Shown here: positions 1 to 55,900 of the stretch, one piece after another | How the letters are laid out: every line of letters starts with the position of its first letter | Position numbering within the stretch: the first letter of the stretch is position 1 | NCBI GenBank assembly: GCA_046598345.1 | Contig: JBKJIT010000004.1 | Coordinates: 69,702 to 133,701, forward strand | Length of the DNA: 64,000 nt | From: Minisyncoccia bacterium | GTDB taxonomy: Bacteria; Patescibacteriota; Minisyncoccia; Phycocordibacterales; UBA918 | Direction of reading: 5' to 3' | Notes under the pieces: model-generated | Databases searched by the model: none | What the model was told of the DNA's origin: nothing | Seen by the model: only the letters and a program-made list of their open reading frames with translations | Translations under genes and position numbers: made by a program

Positions 1-53
1 CCCTGCCGCCGGAGCAGATAGCATTTCGTGGGATTTCTTGGGATAATGACGAC

Positions 54-275
54 GTGACTAAAACATTTACATGTCTGGAATTAGGAGGTATTTGCGACGA
101 AAAGTTTTCCGGAGAAACGTTCATGGATATCGTGAACAAAGGTATGGGACATATGATGTCTGATGAGGCTCACAAAGCGAAGATTATTAACATGGAAGCC
201 GAAACTGGTGAATCCAAAGAGCAATGGATGGAAAAGATGCAAAATGAGTTTGATGGTAAGCCAGAAGATAAATAA
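54..275 (+). CDS. DUF1059-like small metal-binding protein
   Basis: 73 aa; N-terminal 'TFTCLELGGICDEKFSGET' Cys pair resembles the DUF1059 family; recognised from sequence memory only. Confidence 0.45.
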   Translation: MTKTFTCLELGGICDEKFSGETFMDIVNKGMGHMMSDEAHKAKIINMEAETGESKEQWMEKMQNEFDGKPEDK

Positions 276-531
276 CTTGAAAAAAGTCGTTCCAAAAAAG
301 AAGAGCGAGGTAGTTCGTGGATTCACCATTAAGTACCACGCAAGTGGTAGGACCGTTTGGTCAAAAGGAAAGATACAGAACGGTCAACCTAACGGCTATT
401 GGGAATGGTATCGTCCTGATGGTACTCGGAAGCGCTCAGGTACTTTTAAACAAGGAGAACCTGCCGGCAAGTGGACGACATACGATTCAAAAGGAAAGGT
501 ATATAAAGTCACACAGAAAGAAGCTAAGTAA
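253..531 (+). CDS. MORN-variant (YwqK-like) repeat protein
   Basis: Repeated G-x-W/Y-x-x-Y-x-x-x-G motifs ('NGYWEWYRPDGTRKRSGTFKQGEPAGKWTTYDSKGK'); start uncertain, and the longer ORF from 163 overlaps the upstream gene. Confidence 0.45.
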   Translation: MVSQKINNLKKVVPKKKSEVVRGFTIKYHASGRTVWSKGKIQNGQPNGYWEWYRPDGTRKRSGTFKQGEPAGKWTTYDSKGKVYKVTQKEAK

Positions 532-820
532 TCGGCACAAATACCCTATTGGCGGTAAAGAAGGTTCGAAGATTGGAAGCTAAGGGGAGCTAGTGAAAAA
601 GACCTTGTTTTTCAAGGTCTTTTTCTATCACCATTGACTACGTTCGAACCTCCAGCGCGGTAAAGTATAATTCTTAGGTAATGCCACCTGTAAAAGTTTG
701 GATTTTCGTAGGGTCTATCGTATTCATTATCCTTGTGGGGTTACTCTTTTGGGAACCTGAGGATACGAAGCAGTTACCTTGCCCGGATGGGATTCATTCG
801 CATGATGGTAGTCCTGAGCA

Positions 821-1621
821 TTGCGCATAAGCATGAAATTGTTTTTTCTCAGTCTCCTCTTGGCATGTATGGTTGTCATACCTTCTTTGAGCATTGCTCA
901 CGAGGTACTCCCCGCAACATACCTGGAATTTGTTCAAAGTAATCCAAACTATACCGACGCTGAATTTCAAGGATTTATGAATGCATATCCCGAACTACAG
1001 GGAGATGCGAATTTTATGGACCATATCAATACCGTACGAAACACTCCCGCTAGTTGGCTCCATAACGTTCGTGATTTTGTCCGCCTGGGTGTCATCCACA
1101 TTCTCGAAGGTACTGACCATGTGCTTTTCGTTCTTTCTCTCTTGCTCGTCTATACAACGTTTAAACGAGAAGCACTCCTCCTCACGGTATTTACCCTTGC
1201 GCACAGTATTTCACTCATCATTGCCGGGTCTGGCCTACTCACACTCTCATCGAGAGTGGTGGAGCCCATAGTGGCACTCTCCATCACCTATATGGCCATC
1301 ACGAGTGTCTTCCTAAAAAAATATAAAATATTTAAAGCTCACGGCAATAAAATTTCAACAGTGTTTATATTTGGTCTGTTCCACGGTCTTGGTTTTGCAG
1401 GGCTTCTTCGAAACATACAGGTACCTGATGATCGTTTTATCTCATCACTTTTGTCATTCAACGTTGGTATTGAATTGGGTCAATTTGCAATCGTCGCTGC
1501 CGTCTTGCCGTTTATCTATCTCTTCAAAGGACGGAAGTGGTATCCAAAAGTAATAAAAGTAATTGCAGTCATTATTGCGCTTGTTGGACTTTTCTGGGGT
1601 TTTCAAAGAATATTTTTGTAA
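821..1621 (+). CDS. HupE/UreJ-family membrane protein (putative Ni/Co transporter)
   Basis: 266 aa, multi-TM, signal peptide, 'HILEGTDH' HupE/UreJ-type His motif. Confidence 0.55.
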   Translation: MRISMKLFFLSLLLACMVVIPSLSIAHEVLPATYLEFVQSNPNYTDAEFQGFMNAYPELQGDANFMDHINTVRNTPASWLHNVRDFVRLGVIHILEGTDHVLFVLSLLLVYTTFKREALLLTVFTLAHSISLIIAGSGLLTLSSRVVEPIVALSITYMAITSVFLKKYKIFKAHGNKISTVFIFGLFHGLGFAGLLRNIQVPDDRFISSLLSFNVGIELGQFAIVAAVLPFIYLFKGRKWYPKVIKVIAVIIALVGLFWGFQRIFL

Positions 1622-1867
1622 GTCGAACAAAGTTTGATTCCCTACGATATAGGTTTTAACTTCGCTTAATTTACTCTGACAGAATAACAGTCTAGGAGAC
1701 TGCTACGTCAGGATTCGAAGACCTTGCTTGCTATCTTTTGAGCGCTTGACCGAAGCATACCCCGTCTGTTAGCCAGCACTAAACAGGAAAGGGGTCAGGA
1801 AAAGATTTGTTTTGCTGTGTGGGAGAGCGAAAATAGTGTTAAGAATAATACTGGTATAATTTAAGTA

Positions 1868-3211
1868 ATGTCAAAAAGATTACTTTTTACCATTCTCATA
1901 CTACTCATGACCGCAGTCATGATCTTAAGCGGTATTTTGCTTTCTAAGTTTACCCAAGAGCGCCTTAGTGAAAATCTGGTCGATCAATTTTATGAGCAAG
2001 AAGAATTGGCCGCAAAGCAAACAGCATTTACTCTTGAAAACTACACGGCAAACATTACCGACAAGCTCTACATTATTTCACAACTACCGGAGATACGCTT
2101 TGGTGGCACGGACGAGTGTAACAAAAGCTTCGAACAAGTTATTGCTATTACCCAACTCAAGGTAGGAAATCTTGCACGCGTAGGTCAAGATGGTCGATTC
2201 ACATGTTCCTTAAACAAGGCGCTTATTGGTATTGAAGCAGCAACTTTGGGAGACTATATTCCAAAAATATTCAATGACCCAGACCACAAACCTGTACTGA
2301 GTAGGGCTATAATTCCTCCCGGACTAACAAGCCACATTGCCGCCGTACATGTGCCTGTCTATGACGATGAAAAGATATTTATTGGGACATTAGGTGGGGC
2401 AATCTATTTCAACGAGATAGAAGAGAAGATTTTAAAAGATATCAAGCTTTCAGAGGAGGAGGCTGTAGTACTTATTGATGACGACGGCACCATTCTGTAC
2501 CATCCAACTTCAGAGTTAATTGGCAAAAACGCCGAATCTGCTGAAGTTCAAGAACTCAATAACAATAGCCATACGTATAAAAAAATAATTGATTCTACAA
2601 GCAAGAACGAGACTGGAACAATGCGTTACTCATTCGAAGGTACAGAAAAGATCGCCGCATTTGCGCCAGTACATATTTTACCTGATCATAATTGGACAAT
2701 TATAATTTCGGTACCCTTGAGTGAAGTGGATGAAAATCTCGCGGTTCTTGGTGTGCAGTCTCTGTTCAGTTGGCAAATCGGCATCCTTTCAATGATCATA
2801 CTTCTCATGACTTTGTCATTCTTGTGGTATATGATCATTCAATTTTTCAATCCTATTAGCAAAATAACTTTCGCGGCAAAGAAAGTATCAGAGGGAGATT
2901 GGGGGGTAGAGGTGCCCAAGATGAGAAATGACGAGATAGGTACACTCGCTAAAGTTTTTAGTGAAATGGTCGTGCGTCTTAAATCTTATTATCAAAACCT
3001 CGAAAAAGAAGTTGCAGAAAAGACAAAAGAGTCCGAAGAGAGAGTGACGCAAATCAAATCCGTCGCTAAAGCATTGGAAACTTCAAATCAAGAACTTGCT
3101 CAAAAGATGAAGGAGCTGGAAAAGATGAATAGGTTCATGGTTGACCGAGAGATGAAGATGACTGAACTCAAACGTGAGAATAAGGAGCTGAAGATAAAGA
3201 TTTCACAATAA
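1868..3211 (+). CDS. Membrane sensor: TM, extracytoplasmic Cache-like domain, TM, HAMP, C-terminal coiled coil; no output domain
   Basis: N-terminal TM, ~270-aa periplasmic region, second TM (SWQIGILSMIILLMTLSFLWYMII), HAMP-like 'ISKITFAAKKVSEGDWGVEVPKMRNDEIGTLAKVFSEMVVRLK', then coiled coil ending KMNRFMVDREMKMTELKRENKELK; TATAAT at 1854-1859. Confidence 0.6.
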   Translation: MSKRLLFTILILLMTAVMILSGILLSKFTQERLSENLVDQFYEQEELAAKQTAFTLENYTANITDKLYIISQLPEIRFGGTDECNKSFEQVIAITQLKVGNLARVGQDGRFTCSLNKALIGIEAATLGDYIPKIFNDPDHKPVLSRAIIPPGLTSHIAAVHVPVYDDEKIFIGTLGGAIYFNEIEEKILKDIKLSEEEAVVLIDDDGTILYHPTSELIGKNAESAEVQELNNNSHTYKKIIDSTSKNETGTMRYSFEGTEKIAAFAPVHILPDHNWTIIISVPLSEVDENLAVLGVQSLFSWQIGILSMIILLMTLSFLWYMIIQFFNPISKITFAAKKVSEGDWGVEVPKMRNDEIGTLAKVFSEMVVRLKSYYQNLEKEVAEKTKESEERVTQIKSVAKALETSNQELAQKMKELEKMNRFMVDREMKMTELKRENKELKIKISQ

Positions 3212-3464
3212 ACCACTGCGTACCAATTTCCCAAAGTTGAACCGAGGGATTATTCTCAACATCTCGCTGTGGCATTTTACCCCCCCAGGAGGGTATGTGA
3301 CATAATTCAGAAATGAAATTGGATGCAAAAAAAGCGCAATGATTTTGCAAGGATTGAGATAGCTGCTCGCGGAGCTTCCTAATGAATTCGCCCATTTGGG
3401 CAATTTTGTGTTACAAAAACTGGCTGAGAAAGCGATACAAATTGCTGTCTACTGAATTCGAAAA

Positions 3465-4040
3465 GTGTGGACGTATCATAACAATTTGTCAGATGAAGTG
3501 AGATGCTATACTTCACGAATGAATATAATACCTAATCGTATGGAAATCGAGGAAGAACTGAGAGTCAGTAGCGCTGCACTTAAAGTAATTTCTCAGGGAG
3601 TGGTGATTTCAAGGGCGGACCAGTTAATAATTTCAACGAATGTTGCTTTTGCAGACATAACGCAATATTCAATCGAGGAAATCGTGAATAAAAATTGCAG
3701 ATTCCTTCAAGGTCCACTTACCAATATGGAAACAGTACGATCTATACATGATGCACTCAGTAGTGGAAAGGAGTTTGAAGGTGAAATCCTAAACTACCGG
3801 AAAGACGGTACTACTTTTTGGAATGAGCTTACCATTTCTCCTATACATAATGAGCAAGGCGAAATAACTCATTTTATCGGTATCACACGTGATATTACCC
3901 TTCGGAAAAATTTGCAAGACAAATTGGCGGTACAATTGGATCAAGTAGAGAAACTAAATAAATTTATGCAGGATAGAGAGCTCAAGATGATTACACTGAA
4001 GAAGGAAATTGAAGCTTTAAAAGCAGCAAGTCAGAAATAG
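3465..4040 (+). CDS. LOV-domain (PAS) blue-light sensor with C-terminal coiled coil; no output domain
   Basis: Canonical flavin-adduct motif NCRFLQG (Cys codon 3696-3698) within a PAS fold (...GEILNYRKDGTTFWNELTISPIHNEQGEITHFIGITRDIT); true start probably Met at 3519 or 3540. Confidence 0.7.
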   Translation: MWTYHNNLSDEVRCYTSRMNIIPNRMEIEEELRVSSAALKVISQGVVISRADQLIISTNVAFADITQYSIEEIVNKNCRFLQGPLTNMETVRSIHDALSSGKEFEGEILNYRKDGTTFWNELTISPIHNEQGEITHFIGITRDITLRKNLQDKLAVQLDQVEKLNKFMQDRELKMITLKKEIEALKAASQK

Positions 4041-4179
4041 TGTTTCAACAAGTAACGCTACTCTTTCTGACGAGATAAAGGGCTTTTGATCTTTATACTA
4101 CCCACCTTCAAATATCCTTCACAGAGCGGAGCGGTAAAAGACGCTTTATCAAATTACTTTAGTTTGATATTGTCTAAGC

Positions 4180-4617
4180 ATGAAATCAATTAATCCTTGG
4201 ATCAACTTCAATGGTAATGCAGAGGAAGCTTTTGTATTTTACAAGTCTATCTTTGGTGGTGAGTTTACAAAGAGTATACGTTTCAAAGATATTGTGACCG
4301 CAGAATTTCCTGTAGCAGAGAAAGAAGAGAATAAAATAATGTATATTGCGTTGCCAGTTGGTAACGGTAACGTATTAATTGGAAATGATGTCCCAGAGTT
4401 TATGGGAAAAGTTAATGAGGATGAAAACAGAAGCAAAATTTCAATACATACAGAAAGTAAAGAAGAGGCTGACAGAGTATTCAATGGACTTTCGGCTGGA
4501 GGGGCAGTTGAAGGACCAATGGGGGATAGCCCTTGGGGTACGTATTGTGGAATGTTCAGAGACAAATACGGTATTGAATGGATAGTGGAATTTGACTCGA
4601 ATATTAAAGCAAGCTGA
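4180..4617 (+). CDS. VOC/glyoxalase-superfamily protein (PhnB-like)
   Basis: 145 aa; 'EAFVFYKSIFGGEF...MYIALPVGNGNVLIGND...SPWGTYCGMFRDKYGIEW' typical PhnB/YjdN-like. Confidence 0.65.
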   Translation: MKSINPWINFNGNAEEAFVFYKSIFGGEFTKSIRFKDIVTAEFPVAEKEENKIMYIALPVGNGNVLIGNDVPEFMGKVNEDENRSKISIHTESKEEADRVFNGLSAGGAVEGPMGDSPWGTYCGMFRDKYGIEWIVEFDSNIKAS

Positions 4618-5005
4618 TTGTAATTCTGAGGCGGTTTCTTGTTTGTAATTCGTTGTTAGATGCAGGTGCAAACCTTTGTGCTGTTAGGTTACGGATGTGG
4701 TATGGGCACGTACTGCGGCAAAGATTTAGTTCTATAAAGCTTCAGCTCGGGTTCTCGGAATATCTTTTTTTCTCACTTTCGCATGCTTAGTCCGGTTATT
4801 CTTTCATATGAAAACGATTAAAATTTTGAGCTTTGTACTTTTACTAGCATTTGGAGTGTTTATGCTTGTGTTTGGTGGATATACGATAGTCCGGGAGCAC
4901 AGGGGCTGAGACTCTTTGCAGCTCTATTTGCTGTGTGGAAATTATTTAGACTCTTCAAAAAAAATTCGAAGCAAGACTAACGTGTCTGAAGTCAGAGGTA
5001 GTGTA

Positions 5006-5452
5006 TTAAGCATCAGGAATTTCTGGTTCAACTAATTTTGCAAGCTTTTCGAGTGATTCCTGCCAGCCGAGGTAACACATTTCAACTGGGATTTGTGGAG
5101 GAATACCTTCTTGCGTGATCTGGAGTTCAGTACCTCCAATAACTTTCTTAAACGTTACTGTCGTAGTCATCTCGCCGGGCAGATTTGGGTCATCAAACCG
5201 GTCAGAATATTTTACTAATTCATTTTGTTGCATTTCGAGGAAAGTTCCACCAAATGAGCTGCCTTTGCCGGTCGTGAAGTTTGTAAACGTCATTTTGTAG
5301 CTACCACCAACTGTAGCATCGTAACTTTGCACGGTACATATAAATCCATACGGAGGTATCCATGAGGCATGGGCATCGGCCTCTGTGAACGCGCGGTACA
5401 GCTTTTCAGGTATTGTTTTTATAACCCTGTGAAGTTTTATGGTATTTGACAT
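5006..5452 (-). CDS. SRPBCC/AHSA1-like domain protein
   Basis: 148 aa; pattern of Activator-of-Hsp90-ATPase-homolog-like SRPBCC proteins (KLHRVIKTIPEKLYRAFTEADA...WIPP). Confidence 0.6.
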   Translation of the reverse strand: MSNTIKLHRVIKTIPEKLYRAFTEADAHASWIPPYGFICTVQSYDATVGGSYKMTFTNFTTGKGSSFGGTFLEMQQNELVKYSDRFDDPNLPGEMTTTVTFKKVIGGTELQITQEGIPPQIPVEMCYLGWQESLEKLAKLVEPEIPDA

Positions 5453-5714
5453 AGGTATTAGTGTAGATCAATTCATGCAATTTTCAAATCCTGCGGCCAT
5501 ACAATGAGAGAGGTCTGATTGTGCGTGGTTTTTTGTATTCCTATAAATGAATAAAAGTCTGGGGTACTTGGAAAAGGAATTTGGGAATAATAATCTTCGA
5601 TTCAGAGAACATGCTTCAGATACTTACGAAAAAAATAGAAAATTCTCACATCTAGTTAGGGAATCCGTCAGAATAACTGTATTGTTAGAGAATCCCTATT
5701 AGCTAATTTAATAC

Positions 5715-5984
5715 ATGGAACAAAATACATATAAGTACGCTTCAATCGTGCTAGCACTCATCGCTCTTATATTTGCGTACCTCTACTTCTCCAAAGTAGA
5801 ACCAAACGCGGGTGATCTTTATCAAAGTGTTTCTGACAAAGTCGGGGAATGTAGCGAAGATATTACTGAGTGGAAGACTAAATATAGTGATATAGCTTCT
5901 TCAACCGAAAAACAAGCAGACCTTGATAAGATTCTTGAGAACTGTCAGGAAGTAATTACTGAAGGGCAGGCTCAACTTCAATAA
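5715..5984 (+). CDS. hypothetical membrane-anchored small protein
   Basis: 89 aa, single N-terminal TM helix, acidic tail. Confidence 0.3.
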   Translation: MEQNTYKYASIVLALIALIFAYLYFSKVEPNAGDLYQSVSDKVGECSEDITEWKTKYSDIASSTEKQADLDKILENCQEVITEGQAQLQ

Positions 5985-6079
5985 TCCAATTCGTACGTTG
6001 AAAAACCTCAATATTTTTGTATTGAGGTTTTTCATTTCATTTTCCTAGATGAGTGAGATAAGATAACCTTACAGTATAT

Positions 6080-6532
6080 ATGCAACTTTTAAATAATACC
6101 GAGACAACAGAAGTACGGAGCGAAGCTTCACAGTTTCTTATCGATCATAAGAAGATGATTCTTACCGTTTTGGATAAGGATGGGTACCCAAATTCCTCGT
6201 TGGTGCTCTATGTTGCTGATGACTTCACTATTTACTTTGGTACCCGCCGTGCGTTCGGAAAATATGCAGCGCTAACAACAAATCCACACGTTGCGATTGC
6301 CGTTGTACAAGAAAGCATCGATCCACTTCAGGTTCTCGACATACAGGGAATAGCAGAAGAAATACCGGAAGCCGAGACAAAGAAGACCGTGGAGTGGTTT
6401 ATGAGTAAGAATACGTCGAAGTTTTACATTAAAGGCGCCGAAGATCTCGTCATGTTTAAAATCAAACCACTGTGTATTCGATGGTTAAACGCCACTAGTG
6501 GCGATTTCCAAGTCTGCGACATTCAGGTGTAA
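6080..6532 (+). CDS. Pyridoxamine 5'-phosphate oxidase-like FMN-binding protein
   Basis: 150 aa split-barrel-like pattern; start after AT-rich leader. Confidence 0.5.
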   Translation: MQLLNNTETTEVRSEASQFLIDHKKMILTVLDKDGYPNSSLVLYVADDFTIYFGTRRAFGKYAALTTNPHVAIAVVQESIDPLQVLDIQGIAEEIPEAETKKTVEWFMSKNTSKFYIKGAEDLVMFKIKPLCIRWLNATSGDFQVCDIQV

Positions 6533-6536
6533 ATGC

Positions 6537-6563
6537 ATAAAAAAGCCCCCGAGTTAAGGGGGC
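6537..6563 (-). terminator. Rho-independent terminator for the HAD hydrolase gene
   Basis: gccccc-gagttaa-gggggc hairpin preceded by an A-run on + (T-run on - strand). Confidence 0.55.
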
Positions 6564-6593
6564 CAACGAATGGTTGTTTTGCTCCACTTGCTC

Positions 6594-7226: not shown

Positions 7227-7247
7227 GTTTCCTCCTTTTGAGGTTGG

Positions 7248-47952: not shown

Positions 47953-48062
47953 CTCAGTGAGTGGAGTAGAATCGAAGCTTACAGCTTCAGTACCCGTTAC
48001 GGCTACTTTTCTTCACTGCGCTCTAAAAGATAGCTTGCAACGGCTTCGATTCCCTGGACTAT

Positions 48063-48089
48063 GCTCCATTGGTCAGCCCTATGACAACA
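48063..48089 (+). repeat. 27-bp motif GCTCCATTGGTCAGCCCTATGACAACA (copy 1), left boundary of the KaiC cassette
   Basis: 26/27 identical to copies at 55979, 56034 and 56531; contains the stop codon of the GAF kinase. Confidence 0.6.
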
Positions 48090-49323
48090 TCTCAACCCTC
48101 GCAGCCTCTCTATGGTCATTCTTTTGAAGTGGAAGTGAAAATGAAAATATCGAACCTACCCCTAGCTCACTCTGGACATCCAGTGTTCCATTATGAGCCT
48201 TAATGATATCGCTACAAATATAAAGGCCGAGACCTAGGCCAATCGTTTTCGTGTCAGTTCGTACTCGGTAGAATCGATCAAATATTTTAGTACAATCTGC
48301 TTTAGCGATACCGTGACCAAAATCCTTTACACTTACTATAGCTTCAGAACTTGTCTGATTAACAGTAATTTCGATTCTTTCTGATTGTGGAGCATATTTA
48401 ATTGCATTGCCTAGCAAGTTAGTTAACACTTGGGTTATTTTATCTTTGTCTGCGTGAACAATAAGGTTTGTATGCGAATACATGAGTACAAATTTTTGCG
48501 ATGAGTGATTTTGAAAATAGTTAACTGCATCGTTAACAAGCTGATTTAGATCGAAGTTTTCTTTTTGCAGATGTACTTCTCCATTTTTGAGGGCACGTAT
48601 ATCAAAAAGACGAGTCACAAGCGAGTCGAGATGATCTATTTGGGTATCAATGTTCCCAACATCCATATCTAAATCCTCGGAATTGTTTGTGGAAAGTTTG
48701 TGTTGCAACAATTGTGTATATGCTTTCAAACTTGTAAGAGGTGTTCTAATTTCATGAGCAGCTATTAAGACAAACTCGTCCAATGCGGATGCTGCTTGAC
48801 GTAATTCAATTTCAGTCAGCACGGATTTCGACAGTTCGACTAAGATTTCTAATTCATCTTCAGTCCAGATTCTTTTCTTATAATCAACTACACAGCACGT
48901 ACCAAGAATAAGCCCTTGTTTTGTGATAAGCGGAATGCCTGCGTACGCAACTACACCTAGGTAATGCACCGAGGGGAAGTGACGAAAAATTTCTGATTCG
49001 CGTGCGTCCTCCAAGACAAGTGGTTCACCACTGTCGACAATATGCTGGCAAAATGATGGGTGGGCAGTAATTTCTCTACTTTCCGCAAGTGGAGCAGGGA
49101 GCCCGAAATGACTCTTTAAAAAATCACGATCCTTTTCAAGTATTGTCACAAACGAAATGGGGGTTTTAAGGAGTTTCGATGCTAATCGTGTAAGCCGGTC
49201 AAACGCCTCTTCTTCGCCAGTATCAATTAAATTTATTTTCTTTACAGCATTTAATCGACGCGCATTATTGACCGTATCACGAATTTTTTTGATGTGACCA
49301 TCTATGGGAGAATCATTCGACAT
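48079..49323 (-). CDS. GAF-domain sensor histidine kinase
   Basis: GAF region; HisKA 'IAAHEIRTPLTSLKAYTQLL'; HATPase_c 'LLGNAIKYAP...VKDFGHGI...GLGLGLYICSDIIKAHNG'. Confidence 0.8.
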   Translation of the reverse strand: MSNDSPIDGHIKKIRDTVNNARRLNAVKKINLIDTGEEEAFDRLTRLASKLLKTPISFVTILEKDRDFLKSHFGLPAPLAESREITAHPSFCQHIVDSGEPLVLEDARESEIFRHFPSVHYLGVVAYAGIPLITKQGLILGTCCVVDYKKRIWTEDELEILVELSKSVLTEIELRQAASALDEFVLIAAHEIRTPLTSLKAYTQLLQHKLSTNNSEDLDMDVGNIDTQIDHLDSLVTRLFDIRALKNGEVHLQKENFDLNQLVNDAVNYFQNHSSQKFVLMYSHTNLIVHADKDKITQVLTNLLGNAIKYAPQSERIEITVNQTSSEAIVSVKDFGHGIAKADCTKIFDRFYRVRTDTKTIGLGLGLYICSDIIKAHNGTLDVQSELGVGSIFSFSLPLQKNDHREAARVEMLS

Positions 49324-49398
49324 AAAGCAATTATATATTAAAACGAGTATTTGAGGTAAAAATGAAAATTTTCATCTCGTATTCATTTTTCCCTATAG

Positions 49399-49614: not shown

Positions 49615-51123
49615 ATGCCTAAAACTCCTAAGAAAAAACTTGCCTCTAACCAGAAGCACTTAGACAAATGCCCCACTGGCATCAAAGGCTTAGACGAGGT
49701 TACCGAAGGCGGGTTTCCGAAAAATAGAACCACATTAATTTCCGGAGGTGCCGGCTCTGGAAAAACCCTTTTGGGGATTGATTTTCTTATCAAAGGTGCA
49801 AGCGATTTTAACGAGCCAGGCGTCTTCATGTCCTTTGAGGAGACACAAGATGACCTGTATAAAGATGTGGCTTCTCTAAGCCTTGATTTACCAGGACTTG
49901 TTTCACGAAAAAAGATTCTGATTGAGCATGTGATTCTCGATCGCAAAGATATTCGAGAGGGCGACTTCAATCTTGAGGGGATACTCGTTCGTCTGGAACA
50001 TGCCATTGATTCGATTGGAGCAAAACGCATTGTTTTAGATTCTATCGAATCTCCCTTTGCAAGCATCGCCGATGCCGGCATTCTTCGAATAGAGATCAAA
50101 AGACTTTTTAAGTGGCTTAAAGACAAACACGTTACAGCAATCGTTACTGGCGAGCCAGGACGAGGTGCGTATACTCGTCATGGCCTCGAGGAGTTCGTCT
50201 CCGACTGCATTATTCTGCTCGATAATAGAGTTAAAGAACAAATTGCTATCCGTAGACTTCGTATCGTCAAATATCGGGGTTCAAACCATGGAACAAACGA
50301 ATATCCATTCGTCATTGATCAATCGGGGCTTTCTGTAATTCCGATCACCTCAGCAGGACTTAATCAGCCGGGCATTGCCAAAAAAGTCTCAACAGGAATT
50401 CCATCGTTGGACAAAATGTTTAAGGGAAAACCCGGATATACCAAAGGCAGCACGATACTGGTTTCGGGCACTGCAGGCACAGGCAAAACAAGCCTGGCTG
50501 CTGCATTCGCACTAGCGAGCTGTAAACGGGGAGAGCGGTGTCTATTCTTGTCGTATGAAGAATCTTCCGGGCAACTCATACAAAACATGAGTTCTATAGG
50601 TATTCATTTTGAGCCCTGGGTAAAAAAAGGACTCTTAAAGATTGTCTCGGTGAGGCCTTCTTTTTTTGGCCTAGAGATGCACTTGCTTGATTTATACAAG
50701 CTTGTTGACAGTTTTAAACCAAAATCTGTCGTCATAGATCCTCTGACGAGTCTCATTGGAGAGGGGGACGAGCGTGAAATCAGATCTATGATCACTCGCA
50801 TGATTGACCTCTTAAAGTCGAAAGCCATCACTACGTTTTTCACATCTCTTGTTTCTGCATCACAGTATAATGACACGAGCGGTGAGATCGGCGTTTCTTC
50901 CCTAATAGACACGTGGATCGTAGTGAGAGAATTAGAAGAAGAAGTAGGAAAAAAACGTATTCGTGGAATCTTCATTGTGAAGTCTCGTGGCACTGGGCAT
51001 GAGAGTGACGTCCATAAGTTGATTTTGAGTGATGATGGAATTAGCATAATACCCATGGATCTTGCGAGCGCCAATGCGAAAAACAAGAATGACAAGAAGT
51101 TTACCCCTACCCCCCCCTCATGA
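49615..51123 (+). CDS. kaiC: KaiC-like double-RecA-domain ATPase
   Basis: Two Walker A motifs (ISGGAGSGKTLLG; VSGTAGTGKTSLA); catalytic-Glu-like 'SFEETQDD' and 'SYEESSGQ'; C-terminal 'GVSSLIDTWIVVRELEE' aligns with the KaiC phosphosite loop. Confidence 0.8.
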   Translation: MPKTPKKKLASNQKHLDKCPTGIKGLDEVTEGGFPKNRTTLISGGAGSGKTLLGIDFLIKGASDFNEPGVFMSFEETQDDLYKDVASLSLDLPGLVSRKKILIEHVILDRKDIREGDFNLEGILVRLEHAIDSIGAKRIVLDSIESPFASIADAGILRIEIKRLFKWLKDKHVTAIVTGEPGRGAYTRHGLEEFVSDCIILLDNRVKEQIAIRRLRIVKYRGSNHGTNEYPFVIDQSGLSVIPITSAGLNQPGIAKKVSTGIPSLDKMFKGKPGYTKGSTILVSGTAGTGKTSLAAAFALASCKRGERCLFLSYEESSGQLIQNMSSIGIHFEPWVKKGLLKIVSVRPSFFGLEMHLLDLYKLVDSFKPKSVVIDPLTSLIGEGDEREIRSMITRMIDLLKSKAITTFFTSLVSASQYNDTSGEIGVSSLIDTWIVVRELEEEVGKKRIRGIFIVKSRGTGHESDVHKLILSDDGISIIPMDLASANAKNKNDKKFTPTPPS

Positions 51124-51145
51124 GCAAGGAGTAATGTCGTAACAC

Positions 51146-51733
51146 ATGAAAACACTACGACCCAACTTCATTGTCGGTATTGGGGGCTCGGCCGGAGCTC
51201 TTAACGCATATAAGGCGCTCTTGGATGCCACGCCGCCCAAAACAGGGATGGCCTTAGTCATTATTTCTCATATGAATCCCGCCGCCAGCAGTGAGTTAGC
51301 GCACATTCTGTCGCGTCACACGAAAATGCCGGTCATGGTTGCTACCCAAGCGATGCCAGTCCGAAAGAATCACATCTACGTTATCGCCCCGAACTCGGAT
51401 ATTTACATTGAAAAATATACTTTCAAAGTCGTCTCCCCGCGCACAGAGAGGAATAAGCAAATAGATCTGTTTTTGACTTCGTTAGCAGAGGCTATGGGGG
51501 CACATGCTATCGGCGTTATCCTTTCGGGATTTGGTGGTGACGGTACGGAAGGATGCAAAAACATCAAAGCAAACAGGGGAACAACCTTTGCTCAGGACAA
51601 CTCGGCCGAAGTAGACGACATGCCGCTCAGTGCCCAGGCTTCAGGCTGTATTGATTTCGTTCTGCCACCTGACAAAATTTCAGTTGAACTACAAAAAATA
51701 GTAGGGACACACCTACGCGCCAACCGGGTTTAG
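51146..51733 (+). CDS. Stand-alone CheB-type protein-glutamate methylesterase (catalytic domain only)
   Basis: 'IVGIGGSAGA' Ser, 'ISHMNP' His, 'GFGGDGTEG' Asp; no receiver domain. Confidence 0.7.
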   Translation: MKTLRPNFIVGIGGSAGALNAYKALLDATPPKTGMALVIISHMNPAASSELAHILSRHTKMPVMVATQAMPVRKNHIYVIAPNSDIYIEKYTFKVVSPRTERNKQIDLFLTSLAEAMGAHAIGVILSGFGGDGTEGCKNIKANRGTTFAQDNSAEVDDMPLSAQASGCIDFVLPPDKISVELQKIVGTHLRANRV

Positions 51734-52105
51734 CGTGCCCGTACCCAAATGCTTTCCGACTGTAGTTAGCATATCCTGCATGGTATACGGCTTTTCCATA
51801 AAACCGTTTGCACCCGCTTCAAGTGCTGAGGCAGATGCATCAGGGTATGCCGAAATCATGATGATGGGAATATGTTTTGTGACTTGACGTGTTTTCAAAT
51901 GCCTGCAAACGTCAAGTCCGTTTACTCCTGCCATCCAGATGTCGAGGAGAATGAGATCGGGAAACGGGGCGTTTATTTTTTTGACCTCTTCTCCATTCAT
52001 GATCGAAGTTACTTCATACCCGCCATATTGAAGGACCATGGTAAGAGAAGCGACAATACCGTCATTGTCATCTGCCACTAAAACTTTTTTCTTTTGTTTA
52101 GCCAT
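51713..52105 (-). CDS. Single-domain response regulator (CheY-like receiver)
   Basis: 'KKVLVADDN', phospho-acceptor in 'LILLDIWMAG', 'IIMISAY', 'GFMEKPY'; 21-nt convergent overlap with the CheB gene. Confidence 0.85.
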   Translation of the reverse strand: MAKQKKKVLVADDNDGIVASLTMVLQYGGYEVTSIMNGEEVKKINAPFPDLILLDIWMAGVNGLDVCRHLKTRQVTKHIPIIMISAYPDASASALEAGANGFMEKPYTMQDMLTTVGKHLGTGTLNPVGA

Positions 52106-52147
52106 ATTGACCTTTTCATCTATTCAACAGAGGTGTTCATGTAGATG

Positions 52148-55100
52148 TCATGAATTTGCAGTGGCCTTACGTTTTGTTAGCTGTGGGAGGGGAAGTGTAA
52201 AGGTGAATGTAGAACCTTTACCTAAGATACTTTCGACCAGTATCTTGCCCTCGTGTTTCTCGATGATCTGGGCCGCAATAAATAATCCGAGCCCGAATCC
52301 TTCTGCTTTTTCACTCTTTGCAAAGCCGTTCTTTTCTTTTCCTCGGTAAAAGCGCTCAAAGATCGTTTTATGATCTGCCTTTTCAATCCCCAAGCCGAAG
52401 TCCTGAATGCTTACCACTGCATCTCCCGCATGTTCGCCCACGTGTACAATTACTTTTTTTCCGACAGGCGAATATTTGATTGCATTCGTGAGTAAGTTTA
52501 TCACCACCTGCTCAATGCGACTTGCATCAGCTACGACATGTCGTTTTACTCTGCCTTCTAGCGTAATCGTATGGTGCAGCGTGGTTTCCTTGATCGCACT
52601 TACAGTGCGTTCCATGAGTTTGTTGAGATCAAACTCTTCTTTATTAATTAAAAATTTTCCTGCTTGCATTTGGCTGAAACTCAGTAGATCACCGACCAAG
52701 TTCGTAAGCCTATCGCTCTGAGTGATGATGTGCTCAAGAATGACTGCGCTCTCTTTCTTTACGCTGCCTGAGAGCTTTTTTTGCAAAAGCTCGGTAAATG
52801 TCTTGATAGTTGTGACGGGCGTCTTTATTTCATGCGAGGCAATACCGATAAACTCCTCTTTCTGTTGCTCAAGTTCTTTGCGTCCGGTGATGTCGACAAA
52901 ACAATTAATCGCTCCGGTTATTTCTTCTTTTTCATTTTTAATTGGACGAATATTGATGATGACAGTGACCCGCGAACCATCGGGGCGCGCAATCTGAACT
53001 TCCAGATCACGTGCCTCGGGAATCTTGCCAGATAACACCTCGGCCATCGGAGTTACCTCGTGGGGCATGAACGTGCCGTCGGAGCGGTACAATTTGAACG
53101 AACCCCAGAAGCGCTCGTCGGTATCGCCACGCTGCGGGCTGCGGCCCCACAATTCCGTAGCATTGTGGTTGAAATCCCGAATCACGCCGTTTGCATCGCA
53201 GGAATAGAGCGCGATGGGGCCTAAGTCGAATAAAATGCGGTAGCGCTCTTCATTCTCTATAATTTTTTGATGAGCGAGAGCTTGTTCGGTTATATCCTCA
53301 ATGGCAAGTAGAATAAGCCCCGTTTTCCCTGCATCTTGAATCAGTTTGCGAGCATTCAAAAGGAGTACCTTGTGACCAATTGAGGGAAAGGTGTGCTCAA
53401 TCTCAAAGTTTTCCAATTTCGTATTTTTGGGTAGGATCTCCGTCAAAAGTGTGCGTAATTTTGGAATGTCCCACTGCCCATTGCCCAATTCGTAGAGGAA
53501 ATTTCCTTCCGTTTGCTCCTTTGATACCTGGAATGTCCGAAAAAAAGATTCATTCGCGCTTCTCACTCGCAAGTCGCTGTTGATGACGATTAACGACCCT
53601 CGCACCGTTTCAATAATCGCCTCAGTATATGCGCGGGACTCGTTCAGTTGCTCATTGCGTGTTTGCAGCTCTTGATTAATCGTGTTGAGCTCTTCGTTGG
53701 TTGACTCAAGTTCTTCACCGGACGTTTCCAATTCCTCATTGATACTCTGCAGCTCTTCGTTGCTTGAAAGGATTTCCTCGTTTGCAGATTGCAGCTCCTC
53801 AACTGCAGCTTCCTGTTCTTCCGCGAGGGATCGCTCGTTGTCACGTACCTGAGCAAGTTCTTTCTCGAGCACAGCGCTCCTACGGCTCTCCGTCTTCGAC
53901 CTACGAACGTTAGAGGCAGTCTGGCGGAGTGGAGAGTCCGCGGTATCGACTCTCTCTGGAGCCGTATGAAATATAACTAGGAAATGACGCTCTGCAGAAG
54001 TTTTATTTAAAGGAATCACTTCAATCGAGATGGCGTGTGCATGTGTTTCTGTCAGCAGCGTAACTTCTCTTTTAATAGAAAGACTGGTCCTTTTTGCTTT
54101 TAGAATTGCGCCGCGAAGCTCGGATATCAACCCTGCTCGCGCTACTTTTAAAAGATTGAATGTCGCTTTTCCCGTTGGAAATTGGAGATATTCCCCCGTG
54201 TCGCCTCGGAACTGCAGGATCTCATACTCGGCGTTAACCAGAACGCTCGCCGGCGCAAAGCGCCCGACCAGAATGGCATCAGCCTCATCTTGAATTCCAA
54301 TCGTCCGTGCAAGGGGAGTAGTCTCTCGGCTTGAGGGAGTGCGCTGTCGGCCCATCGCGCGCTCCTCGCGCGGAATAACGTCGGGTAATACTTTTCTCGT
54401 CCCAGTTTTTTTTGTGAAGACTTTACTTTTTTTCACAACCGGAATGAAGAGCTTTGGCGTCACCCCCACTGATTCTGATTTTCCTAGGATCAATACTCCC
54501 TCGCTCACAAGTGCATAATGAAGAGCCGACAAAATCCTATACTGCAAGCTCGTGTCCATATAGATAAGAACATTGCAGCAACTAACGATATCAATCCGCG
54601 AAAACGGCGGATCTTTCAGCAGATTGTGCAATGAAAAAACGCACATATCCCGTACATCCCTTCGTATTTGATATGCGCCATTTGTTTCGACGAAGTACCG
54701 CTCGAGACGTTGCGGTGACACGCCAATCACATCGCTTTTCGTGTATGTTCCGTGACGAGCCTTCGCAATTGCGACTTGGGCCAAATCAGTGCCAAATATT
54801 TGTAGAGGGATAGAGAGCGATTTGCTACTCATGAAGTCCAAAACAGTGATAGCAAGTGAATAGACCTCTTCTCCAGTTGCGCATCCCGCCACCCAGATGC
54901 GCAGAGGTTCTTTAGCGGTCTTGGCTTTAATCAGCTTCGGGAGAAGCTTTTGAGTTAAGGTGTTCAATGCAACTGGGTCTCGGAAGAAATCAGTAACATG
55001 TATGAGAATATCATTAAAGAGCGCGTCAGCTTCGGTGCCATTTCCCCGCAGAAAATTGAGGTAGTCTGCTGCAGTTTCCATCTTATTGATGATCATCCTG

Positions 55101-55900
55101 CGAGTGATACGTCGCGTCAGAGTTGTCTCTTTATAGTGGCTGAAGTCCACGCCGGTAGCCCGCAGAAGCTCCGCGATAATCCGCCGGTAATCGTCGAGTT
55201 TATGCAACTCTGTTTTAGAAAGTTCCGAATCACCCATCGTTACAAGCGGATGCTCGCTGAGGAGAGCGAGCTCTTCCGCTATTCTTTGCGGGGACAGCAC
55301 ATAATCAACGACGCTCGCTGAAATGGCAGATTGCGGCATGCTCTGATATTTTGCCGTAGTATCTTGCGCGAACGTGAGTCCGCCAGCCTCTTTTATCGCT
55401 CGCAGTCCTACCGTGCCATCGCTCGCAGTCCCCGAGAGCACAACTCCGATAGCTTTCTCCTGCCTTTCACTGACGAGCGAGATAAAAAAGTCATCGATGG
55501 GCATATTGAGCAATCCTTTTTCTTTCGGACGTGACAAGAGCATAAGCCTTTCTCCCTTGAGGGTCATGCACTTACCCGGCGGAATAACATAAATATGATC
55601 CGATGTAACGAGCGTTCCATTTTTCACTTCTGTGACAGGAATCTGAGTAAATCGTGCGAGTAACTCCACAAGCATACTTTTGTGGAGTGGGTCCAAATGT
55701 TGTATGAGGACATACGCCATGCCGGTTTTGAGCGGCAGAGATTCAATAAGGTTGCCAAATGCCTCGAGCCCACCCGCCGAAGCTCCTATACCAACAATGG
55801 GAACCGGTTGTAGGGTTTGTGTTTTCCTGCTACGCCGTACAAGAGCAGGTCTTTTTTTGCTTTTCTTGTCTAGCATACTCCTCGGTTTCATACCACCCAT
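52148..55900 (-). CDS. Multidomain CheB methylesterase / CheR methyltransferase / PAS / coiled-coil / histidine kinase fusion
   Basis: CheB 'IVGIGASAGGLEAF...IQHLDP...SGTASDGTVG'; CheR 'LRIWVAGCATGEEVYSLAI'; 'EELQSANEEILSSNEELQSINEELETSGEELESTNEEL' heptad repeat; HisKA 'IASHEIKTPVTTI'; HATPase_c 'LLTNAIKYSP...IQDFGLGI...GFGLGLFIAAQ'. Confidence 0.8.
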   Translation of the reverse strand: MGGMKPRSMLDKKSKKRPALVRRSRKTQTLQPVPIVGIGASAGGLEAFGNLIESLPLKTGMAYVLIQHLDPLHKSMLVELLARFTQIPVTEVKNGTLVTSDHIYVIPPGKCMTLKGERLMLLSRPKEKGLLNMPIDDFFISLVSERQEKAIGVVLSGTASDGTVGLRAIKEAGGLTFAQDTTAKYQSMPQSAISASVVDYVLSPQRIAEELALLSEHPLVTMGDSELSKTELHKLDDYRRIIAELLRATGVDFSHYKETTLTRRITRRMIINKMETAADYLNFLRGNGTEADALFNDILIHVTDFFRDPVALNTLTQKLLPKLIKAKTAKEPLRIWVAGCATGEEVYSLAITVLDFMSSKSLSIPLQIFGTDLAQVAIAKARHGTYTKSDVIGVSPQRLERYFVETNGAYQIRRDVRDMCVFSLHNLLKDPPFSRIDIVSCCNVLIYMDTSLQYRILSALHYALVSEGVLILGKSESVGVTPKLFIPVVKKSKVFTKKTGTRKVLPDVIPREERAMGRQRTPSSRETTPLARTIGIQDEADAILVGRFAPASVLVNAEYEILQFRGDTGEYLQFPTGKATFNLLKVARAGLISELRGAILKAKRTSLSIKREVTLLTETHAHAISIEVIPLNKTSAERHFLVIFHTAPERVDTADSPLRQTASNVRRSKTESRRSAVLEKELAQVRDNERSLAEEQEAAVEELQSANEEILSSNEELQSINEELETSGEELESTNEELNTINQELQTRNEQLNESRAYTEAIIETVRGSLIVINSDLRVRSANESFFRTFQVSKEQTEGNFLYELGNGQWDIPKLRTLLTEILPKNTKLENFEIEHTFPSIGHKVLLLNARKLIQDAGKTGLILLAIEDITEQALAHQKIIENEERYRILFDLGPIALYSCDANGVIRDFNHNATELWGRSPQRGDTDERFWGSFKLYRSDGTFMPHEVTPMAEVLSGKIPEARDLEVQIARPDGSRVTVIINIRPIKNEKEEITGAINCFVDITGRKELEQQKEEFIGIASHEIKTPVTTIKTFTELLQKKLSGSVKKESAVILEHIITQSDRLTNLVGDLLSFSQMQAGKFLINKEEFDLNKLMERTVSAIKETTLHHTITLEGRVKRHVVADASRIEQVVINLLTNAIKYSPVGKKVIVHVGEHAGDAVVSIQDFGLGIEKADHKTIFERFYRGKEKNGFAKSEKAEGFGLGLFIAAQIIEKHEGKILVESILGKGSTFTFTLPLPQLTKRKATANS

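Follow-up and report, generated by a model that had tools for sequence, protein, structure and literature searches.

A conserved C-terminal helix shared by adjacent Cache–HAMP and LOV sensors without output domains in a CPR bacterium

Sensors without outputs and two adjacent genes

Sensor proteins that carry no output of their own are familiar from split or accessory systems, such as the PAS-only Campylobacter CetB with its partner CetA, and from third-component sensors, all of which are presumed to act via a separate transducer or kinase. To our knowledge, the CetB/CetA-type split sensors come as pairs restricted to particular lineages and have no docking motif in common, and output-less sensors have been a long-standing blind spot of bacterial signal-transduction censuses. 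The short LOV proteins PpSB1-LOV and PpSB2-LOV of Pseudomonas putida consist of a LOV core with A′α and Jα helices and no fused effector; for PmSB-LOV of P. mendocina, the effector is the LitR-type regulator PmlR2 (PMC9758184). Helical connectors between sensor and catalytic output are exemplified by the S-helix, described as ~5 heptads of parallel coiled coil in which a polar Arg occupies position d, an acidic residue c and Thr e (ERT) (PMC1592074; Anantharaman, Balaji and Aravind 2006). Here we compare these systems, and the chemoreceptors (MCPs) that share one CheA, with two neighbouring genes in a 64-kb window (the whole stretch of DNA that was analysed), both of which belong to one very large, unnamed and apparently uncharacterised family of output-less sensors. 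An earlier note on this DNA had considered a LOV photoreceptor unexpected should the organism be a CPR-type symbiont; the host is indeed a CPR bacterium, its LysRS being 72–77% identical to Minisyncoccia, Paceibacterota and Nomurabacteria proteins.

The first gene (ORF1; 1868..3211, + strand) encodes a 447-aa membrane sensor, identical to public protein P0244, in the order TM1, dCache_1, TM2, HAMP, coiled coil and tail. The extracytoplasmic ligand-binding dCache_1 domain (aa 36–281; 1973..2710, +; Pfam PF02743, E=1.1e-18) lies between hydrophobic segments located by eye in the translation (~aa 5–27 and 293–322), and the HAMP domain (aa 328–372; 2849..2983, +; Pfam PF00672, E=1.8e-6) scores above the gathering threshold. 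Sequence inspection places a coiled-coil connector at aa 373–415 (2984..3112, +), where an S-helix-like AEKTKE has its Lys, by hand count, 42 residues (6 heptads) N-terminal of the tail Arg. The conserved C-terminal tail itself (aa 416–447, ELEKMNRFMVDREMKMTELKRENKELKIKISQ; 3113..3208, +; hmmsearch E=1e-19) carries its invariant Arg at R427, and the columns of R427, E428, M431 and K435 are all invariant among 98 matches. Beyond dCache_1 and HAMP, Pfam gives only weak coiled-coil noise for ORF1 and no MCPsignal match, with no more than 75 residues remaining C-terminal of HAMP.

The second gene (ORF2; 3540..4040, +) encodes a 166-aa protein composed of an A′α helix, a LOV core and a long C-terminal helix that includes the tail. 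Its start at ATG 3540 is that of the public gene call (P0001, 100% identical), with ATG 3519 and GTG 3465 as alternatives. The LOV assignment comes from PAS_9 (E=4.6e-23), the NCBIfam YtvA family (E=1e-36) and solved LOV domains (E=2e-27), with which the adduct motif (NKNCRFLQGP) aligns residue by residue; the flavin-adduct motif NCRFLQG (3693..3713, +) is intact, as previously noted, with the Cys53 codon at 3696–3698. Across 59 LOV homologues, no variation occurs at C53, F55, L56, G58, N85, Y86 or F93, and hardly any at N52, R54, Q57 and N95. An AF2 model (pLDDT 93.9) consists of a helix at 2–16, the core, and a helix at 120–165, and Foldseek matched it to LOV structures 6rhg, 9vf7, 2pr5 and 4gcz, with target TM up to 0.95 and rmsd of 0.7–2 Å. 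Judged by sequence and model, ORF2 has the PAS fold and adduct Cys of a blue-light LOV domain, and flavin binding and a 450-nm to 390-nm photocycle are predicted.

Pfam and NCBIfam find PAS/LOV only in ORF2, the rest being terminal helices; like PpSB1-LOV and PpSB2-LOV, it is a LOV core with A′α and Jα and without a fused effector, and it probably dimerises through its helices as they do. Signalling must pass via a separate protein. In contrast to the short LOVs, however, the C-terminal helix of ORF2 is 46 residues long and holds a motif common to non-LOV sensors; ORF2 also has no LitR-type gene beside it and resides in a CPR bacterium. This helix (aa 120–165; 3897..4034, +; pLDDT 97–98) is single and unbroken, combining a Jα-like coiled coil with the conserved tail (aa 135–166, QVEKLNKFMQDRELKMITLKKEIEALKAASQK; 3942..4037, +; hmmsearch E=1e-23). 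From the Asp of the PAS ‘DIT’ (D118) to the tail Arg (R146) the distance is exactly 28 residues, and LOV homologues P0002–P0006, P0008 and P0009 share the same ending.

The shared tail and its family

The similarity of the two endings is real, although the terminal 32-mers share 15/32 identities and not the 17/32 given in the earlier note. The best local alignment between the two tails scores 89 (BLOSUM62), a value reached by none of 5000 composition shuffles (mean 32, max 60) and none of 5000 heptad-position-preserving shuffles (mean 38, max 80); with 0/10000 shuffled controls at the observed score, generic heptad composition does not account for the resemblance. In both proteins the motif begins exactly 28 residues before the stop codon, and no further copy occurs in the window. 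Both match the family profile with 0 residues past its end, and both are of a short variant without the KY extension described below. As had also been noticed, neither sensor has an output: Pfam and NCBIfam reveal no HisKA, HATPase, GGDEF, HTH or STAS, with no match of HisKA or HATPase (Pfam) even at E≤1. A six-frame scan of the window found no ATPase domain in any frame near 1.8–4.2 kb, kinase ATPase domains being confined to 48–49 kb and 52–56 kb, and Rfam, tRNA and promoter/terminator scans around both genes gave nothing relevant. For the tail itself, Pfam and NCBIfam at E≤1 returned nothing but coiled-coil noise such as SlyX. These results support the view that both sensors end in a specific and conserved helical module, and that it takes the place of an output domain.

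The tail does define a family. A profile search recovered 7069 protein clusters at 50% identity (E≤1e-3), spread across many bacterial phyla and a few archaeal MAGs and fused to more than 10 types of input domain. The consensus, ELE(K/R)xN(K/R)(L/F)M(V/I)(D/G)RELKM(I/V)ELKKEIxxLK, describes a helix of ~28 residues, and the defining motif, N-x2-M-x-(D/G)-R-E-x-K-M-x-E-L-K-x-E with the protein end within ~35 residues, is present in both window proteins; a longer variant ends in ...GxxP(K/R)Y.... Within 20 aa of the motif, 137/141 top representatives end (median 3), and every tail ORF in the loci that we fetched (112/112 and 90/90, or 202/202) stops 0–33 residues past it. Input domains precede the tail: among 98 full-length matches, PAS occurs in 65 and HAMP in 15, along with GAF, CHASE, CHASE4, dCache, PocR, SBP_bac_3, CBS and REC, and the 25 most frequent of the 40 Pfam families in full-length tail proteins are all input domains, to which FIST-adjacent inputs can be added. 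This inputs-only architecture is kept even in tail proteins of 845–1489 aa, and the tail ORFs of the fetched loci, those of the metagenome round included, were found to lack a kinase ATPase domain. Twelve tail ORFs from the second-round (metagenome) loci start with REC, and therefore the tail can serve as a response-regulator output. A word-indexed search with the tail profile gave matches that are all ≤90 aa, many on contigs of ~1 kb, and are therefore uninformative about architecture. Full-text literature searches on the tail peptide, on CPR with LOV, on CPR with kinase and PAS, and on CheB/CheR fusions returned nothing relevant.

The constant position of the stop also bears on whether both genes could be kinases truncated by a frameshift or assembly error, with the tail as the start of a lost DHp. 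The tail does occupy the place of DHp helix 1 after the PAS ‘DIT...’ linker, its RELKM superficially resembles the H-box HELRT, and tail and HisKA–HATPase are alternative endings of CheB-CheR fusions. However, no kinase remnant lies downstream of either stop in any frame, identical proteins occur on an independent assembly, HisKA does not match the tails even at a permissive threshold, and the homologues, comprising all of the fetched ORFs and ~97% of top database matches, stop at the same place without a kinase continuation. We therefore regard truncation, which the earlier note had named as a potential refutation, as having almost no chance of being correct. The related notion of a pseudo-H-box (DRELKM resembling SHELRT) was rejected as unsupported: when 110 tails were compared by hhalign with DHp regions from neighbouring kinases, the alignment was confined to the PAS ‘DIT’ end and had a probability of 1%; the residue equivalent to the phospho-acceptor His is Arg. 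DNA binding in the manner of bZIP, considered for its N...R spacing, was likewise dismissed on inspection, given the wrong spacing and an acidic segment upstream.

Residue conservation and phasing indicate how the helix may be organised. In the logo, R and K are at 100%, E at 99%, M at 98% and L at 96–98%, figures that are inflated because the sequences were picked by the profile itself. Heptads assigned from the logo place Arg at d, D/G at c and Glu at e, while V25, L29 and I32 are hydrophobic and at b/f positions, forming a second hydrophobic stripe. On this assignment the tail may resemble the S-helix in its published definition, as a putative parallel coiled coil that follows HAMP or PAS and has Arg at d within a conserved polar triplet (DRE; ERT in the S-helix), and in many HAMP-type tail proteins a canonical ERT precedes the tail Arg by exactly 21 residues (3 heptads). 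However, the tail ends the protein, with no catalytic output after it, in contrast to the connecting S-helix; moreover, where ERT has Thr the tail has an invariant Glu, and the KMxELKxE block after it is specific to the tail. The spacing from the PAS ‘DIT’ to the tail Arg is also fixed, being 28 residues in 184/234 and 35 in 31/234 PAS-tail proteins.

A less specific role would be that of a stabilising homodimerisation zipper with no particular partner, the sensor domains themselves acting, for example, by buffering a ligand or flavin or by forming PAS–PAS heterodimers with a kinase. Short LOV proteins, e.g. PpSB1-LOV, do dimerise via Jα coiled coils according to the literature, and a PDB search with the tail profile returned only designed dimeric and trimeric coiled coils, matched at the ELKKEIxxLK part; the tail motif matches no PDB chain, and hence no solved LOV structure has the tail. 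Against such a zipper, conservation extends to every face of the helix, unlike a simple two-stranded zipper, and near-invariant residues on all faces, a buried Arg and a 28- or 35-residue PAS phase would not be needed, nor would a constant, extreme C-terminal position. Retention over so many phyla and input types, together with the heptad-preserving shuffles that all fell below the observed score, argues in the same direction, and we find this explanation very unlikely.

Gene neighbourhoods of tail genes

We examined the loci of tail genes using stop-to-stop ORFs as gene calls, with kinase, REC and CheR labels from local jackhmmer profiles that were verified by Pfam for a sample. After de-duplication, a kinase is found near tail genes in 41/74 genome loci and 32/41 metagenome loci, and a receiver in 34/74 and 32/41, respectively. 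Tail genes are directly followed by a kinase or CheR gene 21 times out of 101 and 29 times out of 84, compared to 20/506 and 11/98 for the other genes in the same loci (odds ratios of 6.4 and 4.2); because the loci are phylogenetically non-independent, the Fisher p-values are indicative only. The usual operon order is tail, histidine kinase, receiver and, in some cases, a second receiver, whereas ~45% of CPR-type loci have no kinase within ±6 kb. The kinases beside tail genes vary in their N-termini (dCache-HAMP, 4HB_MCP-HAMP-GAF, PAS, PocR), and a common receiving element was not found among them. In the cultured Vitreoscilla filiformis, a tail gene on pVF1 overlaps by 4 nt the start of a gene for a PocR-PAS-HisKA-HATPase-REC kinase, the two proteins being WP_089418367 and WP_089418368; this was the sole useful plasmid match from tblastn with a real LOV tail, the consensus tail giving no match to plasmids, probably owing to low-complexity masking. 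As in CetB/CetA-type systems, an output-less sensor gene adjoins that of a presumed transducer or kinase, but here one tail motif spans thousands of sensors from many bacterial phyla. The arrangement is also reminiscent of MCPs and CheA, in that diverse sensors (Cache with HAMP, cytoplasmic PAS) would converge via one helical element on a kinase and single-domain receivers.

Neighbourhoods differ between the two variants of the tail. CheR/CheB genes are linked to the long variant in 19/45 loci (17/41 after de-duplication), compared to 1/73 for the short variant, and a recurrent long-variant operon consists of the tail gene, CheR (273 aa), a hybrid histidine kinase-REC and a receiver. In loci such as L122, L134 and L142, the stop of the tail gene runs into the start of CheR; the CheR, CheR_N and CheB assignments in the long-variant operons were confirmed by Pfam, and CheB-CheR-PAS-tail fusions occur in L147, L160 and L161. 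The presence of CheR and CheB, with a possible C-terminal tether, is a further likeness to MCPs, although tail sensors differ from these in having no MCPsignal domain, hairpin, CheW or canonical methylation consensus, and in their association with a HisKA-type kinase rather than CheA. The tail could accordingly be a methyl-accepting element, a CheR/CheB-tethering element, or both, making the sensors chemoreceptor analogues for HisKA kinases. Specifically, adaptation would work through methylation and demethylation of the conserved Glu residues E28, E33 and E37 of the logo, the ...GxxP(K/R)Y... end would hold CheR in the manner of the NWETF pentapeptide of Tar and Tsr, and the enzymes in this genome region would be the CheB-CheR domains of a 1250-aa kinase and a free CheB, both encoded in the window. 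Tail operons were found to contain neither an MCPsignal-type protein nor a canonical MCP methylation site, and therefore CheR needs another substrate. However, the tail departs from the MCP methylation consensus, the CheB-CheR fusions carry EELQSxNEEL repeats of their own that resemble internal substrates, and the window tails are short variants, a class with almost no CheR/CheB linkage, located 48 kb from the CheB/CheR genes. On these grounds methylation or tethering seems rather unlikely as the function of the tail.

Alternatively, association between tails could itself be the function, with hetero-oligomers (e.g. four-helix bundles) providing output through another surface; in that case the membrane Cache–HAMP protein would recruit the soluble LOV protein, and the signals of both would be integrated in a mixed sensor complex. 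At least two tail genes are in tandem in 20/74 genome loci, with up to 4 in one locus, and two lie side by side in the window. Furthermore, proteins P0241, P0243 and P0355 each have two tails parted by a flexible Lys-rich linker, both of which are confident helices in an AF2 single-sequence model of P0241, and the second hydrophobic stripe at the b/f positions would fit such a role. On the other hand, an oligomer of sensors only would still have no output, many loci contain a single tail gene, and the pairing of Cache-tail with LOV-tail is not kept in the closest LOV orthologue. We consider tail–tail association unlikely to be the main role.

Candidate partners and a possible phosphorelay

The reading that we favour, with slightly more confidence than doubt, is that the tail is a signal-controlled output helix coupling accessory sensors to the phosphorelay of a HisKA kinase, the partner being a candidate. 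Varied input modules (dCache with HAMP, PAS/LOV, GAF, CHASE, PocR, periplasmic-binding, REC) are joined to the tail via a coiled coil of fixed heptad phase, and in the sensor dimer the two tails would pair in parallel as a coiled coil whose core buries a polar Arg, in the manner of the S-helix. A signal from HAMP or Jα may rotate this coiled coil or shift its register, altering the binding of the tail to its partner, which would most probably be a HisKA-type histidine kinase or its single-domain receiver, with the tail itself not phosphorylated. A single phosphorelay could in this way receive the signals of several sensors, as CheA does from many chemoreceptors; for the window, the dCache sensor would report an extracytoplasmic ligand and the LOV sensor blue light. 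The family itself, with its terminal tail, its lack of output domains, its constant phase and its operon links, is observed, whereas partner binding, partner identity and the direction of regulation are inferred.

More tentatively, and with the odds against it, the tail may be a portable kinase-control or docking helix that makes almost any input, REC included, a receptor for HisKA-type phosphorelays, regulated in its long form by dedicated CheR/CheB methylation and constituting the chief wiring by which gene-poor CPR bacteria connect several sensors, a blue-light LOV sensor among them, to their few kinases. If true, this would reveal a previously unrecognised and very widespread class of signalling output, with a chemoreceptor-like, adapting, many-sensors-to-one-kinase architecture outside chemotaxis. 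If a single helix of 28 residues does explain thousands of output-less sensors, the many proteins annotated only as ‘PAS domain-containing protein’ would gain a mode of action, and the orphan CheR/CheB enzymes outside chemotaxis could be assigned likely substrates or partners. It would also become apparent how CPR bacteria with minimal genomes bring light and chemical cues together with very few kinases. Such a helix, compact, of fixed phase and already joined to LOV in nature, could in addition serve optogenetic kinase control.

A common docking partner or split two-component arrangement, as suggested in the earlier note, agrees with the related loci, where tail genes precede HisKA kinases and receivers, but the tail genes of the window adjoin neither; their neighbours encode HupE/UreJ, glyoxalase, AHSA1, PNPOx and HAD proteins. 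The kinases of the KaiC cassette, 44 kb from the two genes, had been put forward as partners. For context, the cassette contains KaiC (49615–51123) and a stand-alone CheB methylesterase (51146–51733; together 49615..51733, +). KaiC as the tail partner was rejected, as no homologue occurs in ~83 first-round loci. A GAF-HisKA-HATPase protein (48079..49323, −; Pfam), the second kinase of the window, is a candidate without specific evidence. The remaining kinase, alone in having a family-level link to the tail, is a 1250-aa CheB-CheR-coiled coil-PAS-PAS-HisKA-HATPase protein (52148..55900, −; Pfam), which is one of the CheB/CheR fusions annotated in genomes as ‘histidine kinase with CheB and CheR activity’; ORF1 and ORF2, by comparison, have no CheB or CheR domains. 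Directly downstream of it is a 130-aa single-domain receiver (51713..52105, −; REC profile E=8.5e-29), also a candidate partner and the only receiver domain in the window. We consider this kinase and receiver, 48 kb downstream, the most plausible recipient of the two orphan tail sensors. The kinase is 36% identical over 783 aa to the CheB-CheR-PAS-tail protein of L147, where a separate PAS-kinase follows the tail protein in place of the single CheB-CheR-PAS-PAS-kinase fusion of the window, and relatives that share its N-terminal 780 aa have the tail instead of the kinase at their end.

Two window sensors ending in the same helix

The membrane sensor ORF1 (1868-3211, plus strand, 447 aa) was present as the earlier note had described it, comprising two hydrophobic segments with a dCache_1 domain (aa 36-281, E=1e-18) between them, then a HAMP domain (aa 328-372), followed by 75 residues without any family match in Pfam or NCBIfam; its cytoplasmic part is aa 323-447. 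ORF2, which ends at 4040, corresponds to a public gene call (P0001, 166 aa) with its start ATG at 3540, and was assigned as a LOV domain by PAS_9 (E=5e-23), the NCBIfam YtvA-family model (E=1e-36), and comparison with solved LOV domains (E=2e-27); the NCRFLQG motif is present, with the adduct Cys codon at 3696-3698. The AF2 model of ORF2 (pLDDT 93.9) superposes with LOV structures, and its C-terminus forms a single helix (aa 120-165, pLDDT 97-98). Family searches returned no kinase, GGDEF, HTH or STAS domain in either protein, in agreement with the earlier reading of both as sensors lacking such outputs, and a six-frame scan of the whole window revealed no kinase ATPase domains outside the cassette at 48-56 kb. 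The spacer between the two genes (3212-3539) extends over 328 nt up to the annotated LOV start, an unusual length in a genome that is otherwise compact, and contains neither an Rfam match nor a convincing terminator.

The similarity proposed between the two C-terminal peptides is real, although the terminal 32-mers share 15/32 identities rather than the 17/32 first counted. Local alignment of the two tails gave a score of 89, compared to a mean of 32 (maximum 60) for composition shuffles and a mean of 38 (maximum 80) for shuffles preserving composition at each heptad position. With both kinds taken together, 0/10000 shuffles reached 89, which answers the concern that generic coiled-coil controls might score as well. 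In both proteins, the motif starts exactly 28 residues ahead of the stop. An origin of ORF1 and the LOV protein as truncated kinases is excluded.

A terminal helix shared by a very large sensor family

Both window proteins belong to a very large sensor family whose sole common element is this terminal helix, or tail (~28 residues), held in fixed phase. LOV homologues retrieved by the LOV domain alone (P0002-P0006, P0008 and P0009; 43-80% identical) share the terminal peptide of ORF2, and among 1.84 billion cluster representatives a profile built from eight tails matched 7069 proteins at E<=1e-3. Among the 141 top representatives, 137 carry the last motif <=20 residues from the C-terminus (median 3). 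When 98 full-length tail proteins were searched with Pfam, 40 families matched, of which the 25 commonest were input modules only, namely PAS (65), HAMP (15), GAF, CHASE, CHASE4, dCache, PocR, SBP_bac_3, CBS, 5TMR-LYT and REC; tail proteins of 845-1489 aa likewise consist of inputs and tail only. No output domain was detected in the family, the listed Pfam families being inputs and the tail ORFs of metagenome loci having no kinase ATPase domain. In twelve tail proteins the N-terminal domain is a receiver, so a response regulator can likewise have the tail as its output. Within the incomplete coverage of our searches, we found no name for the module in Pfam, NCBIfam, the PDB or full-text literature, and no experimental study of any family member in the literature; an earlier description is possible.

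The logo of 378 distinct tails reads E-L-E-(R/K)-(M/L/F)-N-(K/R)-(L/F)-M-(V/I)-(D/G)-R-E-L-K-M-(I/V)-E-L-K-K-E-I-x-x-L-K, with conservation, inflated by profile-based selection, of 100% for R (R427 in ORF1, R146 in the LOV protein), 99% for E, 98% for M, 100% for K and 96-98% for L. With this Arg placed at core 'd', the a/d core is L-M-M-R-M-L-I-L; positions b, c, e, f and g are conserved too, and V25, L29 and I32 form a second hydrophobic stripe. That such a helix is a dimerisation zipper and nothing more seems very improbable. Direct association between the tails of different sensors is also improbable as the principal role, and would be compatible with the phosphorelay coupling favoured below. 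In some proteins (P0241, P0243 and P0355) a flexible, Lys-rich linker joins two successive tails, both predicted as confident helices, which hints at possible tail-tail packing. In the rare cases P0303 and P0306, a conserved helical segment of ~70 residues without a Pfam match follows the tail (...NRFEDGIKLEEDV...LLSDSQKHEEALRGL), and could be a fused partner-like domain.

Searching one genome per GTDB species with the pattern [FL]M[VQI]DRExKM yielded 80 loci, mostly from Patescibacteria (Kaiser-, Sacchari-, Collier-, Roizman-, Morani-, Wolfe- and Dojkabacteria), with others from Gammaproteobacteria, Bacteroidales, Delongbacteria and archaeal MAGs (L059, Candidatus Altiarchaeota archaeon; L050, uncultured archaeon). 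Across these and earlier loci, the stop codon falls 0-19 residues beyond the profile match in 112/112. A metagenome scan for the Gly variant MIELK[KE]EI gave at least 80 loci; among the matches listed, complete ORFs end <=33 residues past the motif in 90/90, usually with the longer ending ...ELKKEINxLLxxxGxxP(K/R)Y(K/P)(I/L)... (the long variant; both window proteins are of the short variant). The PAS 'D-I-T' is separated from the invariant tail Arg by 28 residues in 184/234 PAS-type proteins, including the window LOV protein, and by 35 in 31/234, corresponding to four and five heptads, and in ORF1 this Arg follows an S-helix-like 'EKT' at a distance of 42 residues (six heptads). Constant spacing from the sensor core in whole heptads is seen in the coiled-coil linkers through which signals reach kinases. 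Because the tail is connected to its sensor core in this manner, a passive appendage is disfavoured.

Gene neighbourhoods and the role of the tail

Tail genes show a preference for loci that also encode HisKA kinases and single-domain receivers and, in one sub-family, CheR/CheB. After de-duplication at 85% identity and restriction to loci of >=5 kb, genome and metagenome loci respectively contained a kinase in 41/74 and 32/41, a receiver in 34/74 and 32/41, at least two tail genes in 20/74 and 5/41, and CheR/CheB in 2/74 and 17/41; gene models were our own stop-to-stop ORF calls, and domain labels beyond a Pfam-checked sample came from local iterative profiles. A kinase or CheR gene lies directly downstream of 21/101 and 29/84 tail genes, compared to 20/506 and 11/98 other genes of the same loci (odds ratios 6.4 and 4.2), a conservative within-locus control in which related loci are taken as independent. 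The usual order is one or sometimes several tail genes, an optional periplasmic binding protein, a histidine kinase, and one or two single-domain receivers; by Pfam, the operon kinases have the architecture dCache_1-HAMP-(PAS)-HisKA-HATPase and the small proteins are receivers. On balance, we favour the tail as a signal-controlled, protein-binding output that would couple accessory sensors to a kinase phosphorelay, much as many chemoreceptors share one CheA.

A cultured example occurs on the Vitreoscilla filiformis plasmid pVF1 (NZ_CP022424.1, locus L086, 4900-9305), where a TM-PAS-tail gene (WP_089418367, annotated only 'PAS domain-containing protein') runs 4 nt into the start of a gene for a PocR-PAS-HisKA-HATPase-REC kinase (WP_089418368), with a substrate-binding protein gene ahead of the pair and a Cache protein gene after it; this pair provides a practical entry for experiments. 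A sensor-rich CPR operon recurs in L008, L011, L013, L014, L039, L044, L046, L063 and L072, starting with an Ig-like surface protein, an AhpC/TSA-like protein, a multi-TM dCache_3 protein that stops immediately past its last TM, and a FIST protein, and continuing with tail protein(s), a periplasmic binding protein (Peripla_BP_4 or NMT1), a dCache-HAMP kinase, and 1-2 single-domain receivers; in L008 a tail ORF lies at 4708-6150 and the kinase ORF at 6098-8485.

The recurrent operon of the long variant consists of the tail gene, CheR (~273 aa), a hybrid kinase (4HB_MCP-HAMP-GAF-HisKA-HATPase-REC-REC) and a large REC protein, and in L091, L122, L134 and L142 the tail stop codon overlaps the CheR gene start, which suggests translational coupling; in L122 the tail gene spans 1716-3959 and CheR 3955-4773. 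These arrangements raise the alternative that the tail is a methyl-accepting or CheR-tethering element, which we regard as unlikely, and less likely still for the short variant present in the window. No canonical MCP methylation sites were found in the tail/CheR operons. CheR/CheB occurs near long-variant tails in 19/45 loci versus 1/73 for the short variant, a comparison confounded by taxonomy and sampling. CheB-CheR-coiled coil-PAS-tail fusions also exist, with a PAS-kinase gene next (L147). The window's 1250-aa CheB-CheR-PAS-PAS-HisKA-HATPase protein is 36% identical to the L147 tail protein over 783 residues; members of the CheB-CheR family can therefore end in either the tail or a fused kinase core, and this fusion/fission relation points to a probable functional coupling of tails with kinases.

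Host and candidate partners in the window

The window LysRS shares 72-77% identity with proteins from Minisyncoccia, Paceibacterota and Nomurabacteria, indicating a CPR host, as the earlier note had suspected. Neighbours of the window's tail genes are non-signalling (HupE/UreJ, glyoxalase, AHSA1, PNPOx and HAD), and differ from those of the nearest LOV orthologue (80% identical); in two other LOV-tail loci a second tail gene is close by. The KaiC cassette (48079-55900) is a compact signalling cassette for a CPR genome, encoding a GAF-HisKA-HATPase kinase (48079-49323, minus), KaiC (49615-51123, plus), a stand-alone CheB (51146-51733, plus), a single-domain receiver (51713-52105, minus), and the CheB-CheR kinase (52148-55900, minus), the last built as CheB-CheR-coiled coil (EELQSxNEEL repeats)-PAS-PAS-HisKA-HATPase. 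CheB/CheR enzymes are unexpected there, as the CPR lineage is not known for chemotaxis. Of the cassette kinases nominated as partners in the earlier note, the CheB-CheR kinase, paired with the receiver, is the best candidate in the window. KaiC itself is without support, no KaiC homologue having been found in the first-round tail loci.

The G+C content is 0.39-0.42 at 1-6000, where both tail genes lie, and 0.40 around the GAF kinase (48000-50000), compared to 0.45-0.49 for most of the window; these low-G+C segments may be accessory or acquired. Elsewhere, ORFs of 649 aa (20696-22645) and 737 aa (39509-41722) have no Pfam match, the former following a gene for a 910-aa protein (17802-20534) with HerA/VirD4-like (T4SS coupling protein) ATPase signatures, and 9113-9376 encodes a small SWIB-domain protein (87 aa) in a bacterial genome.
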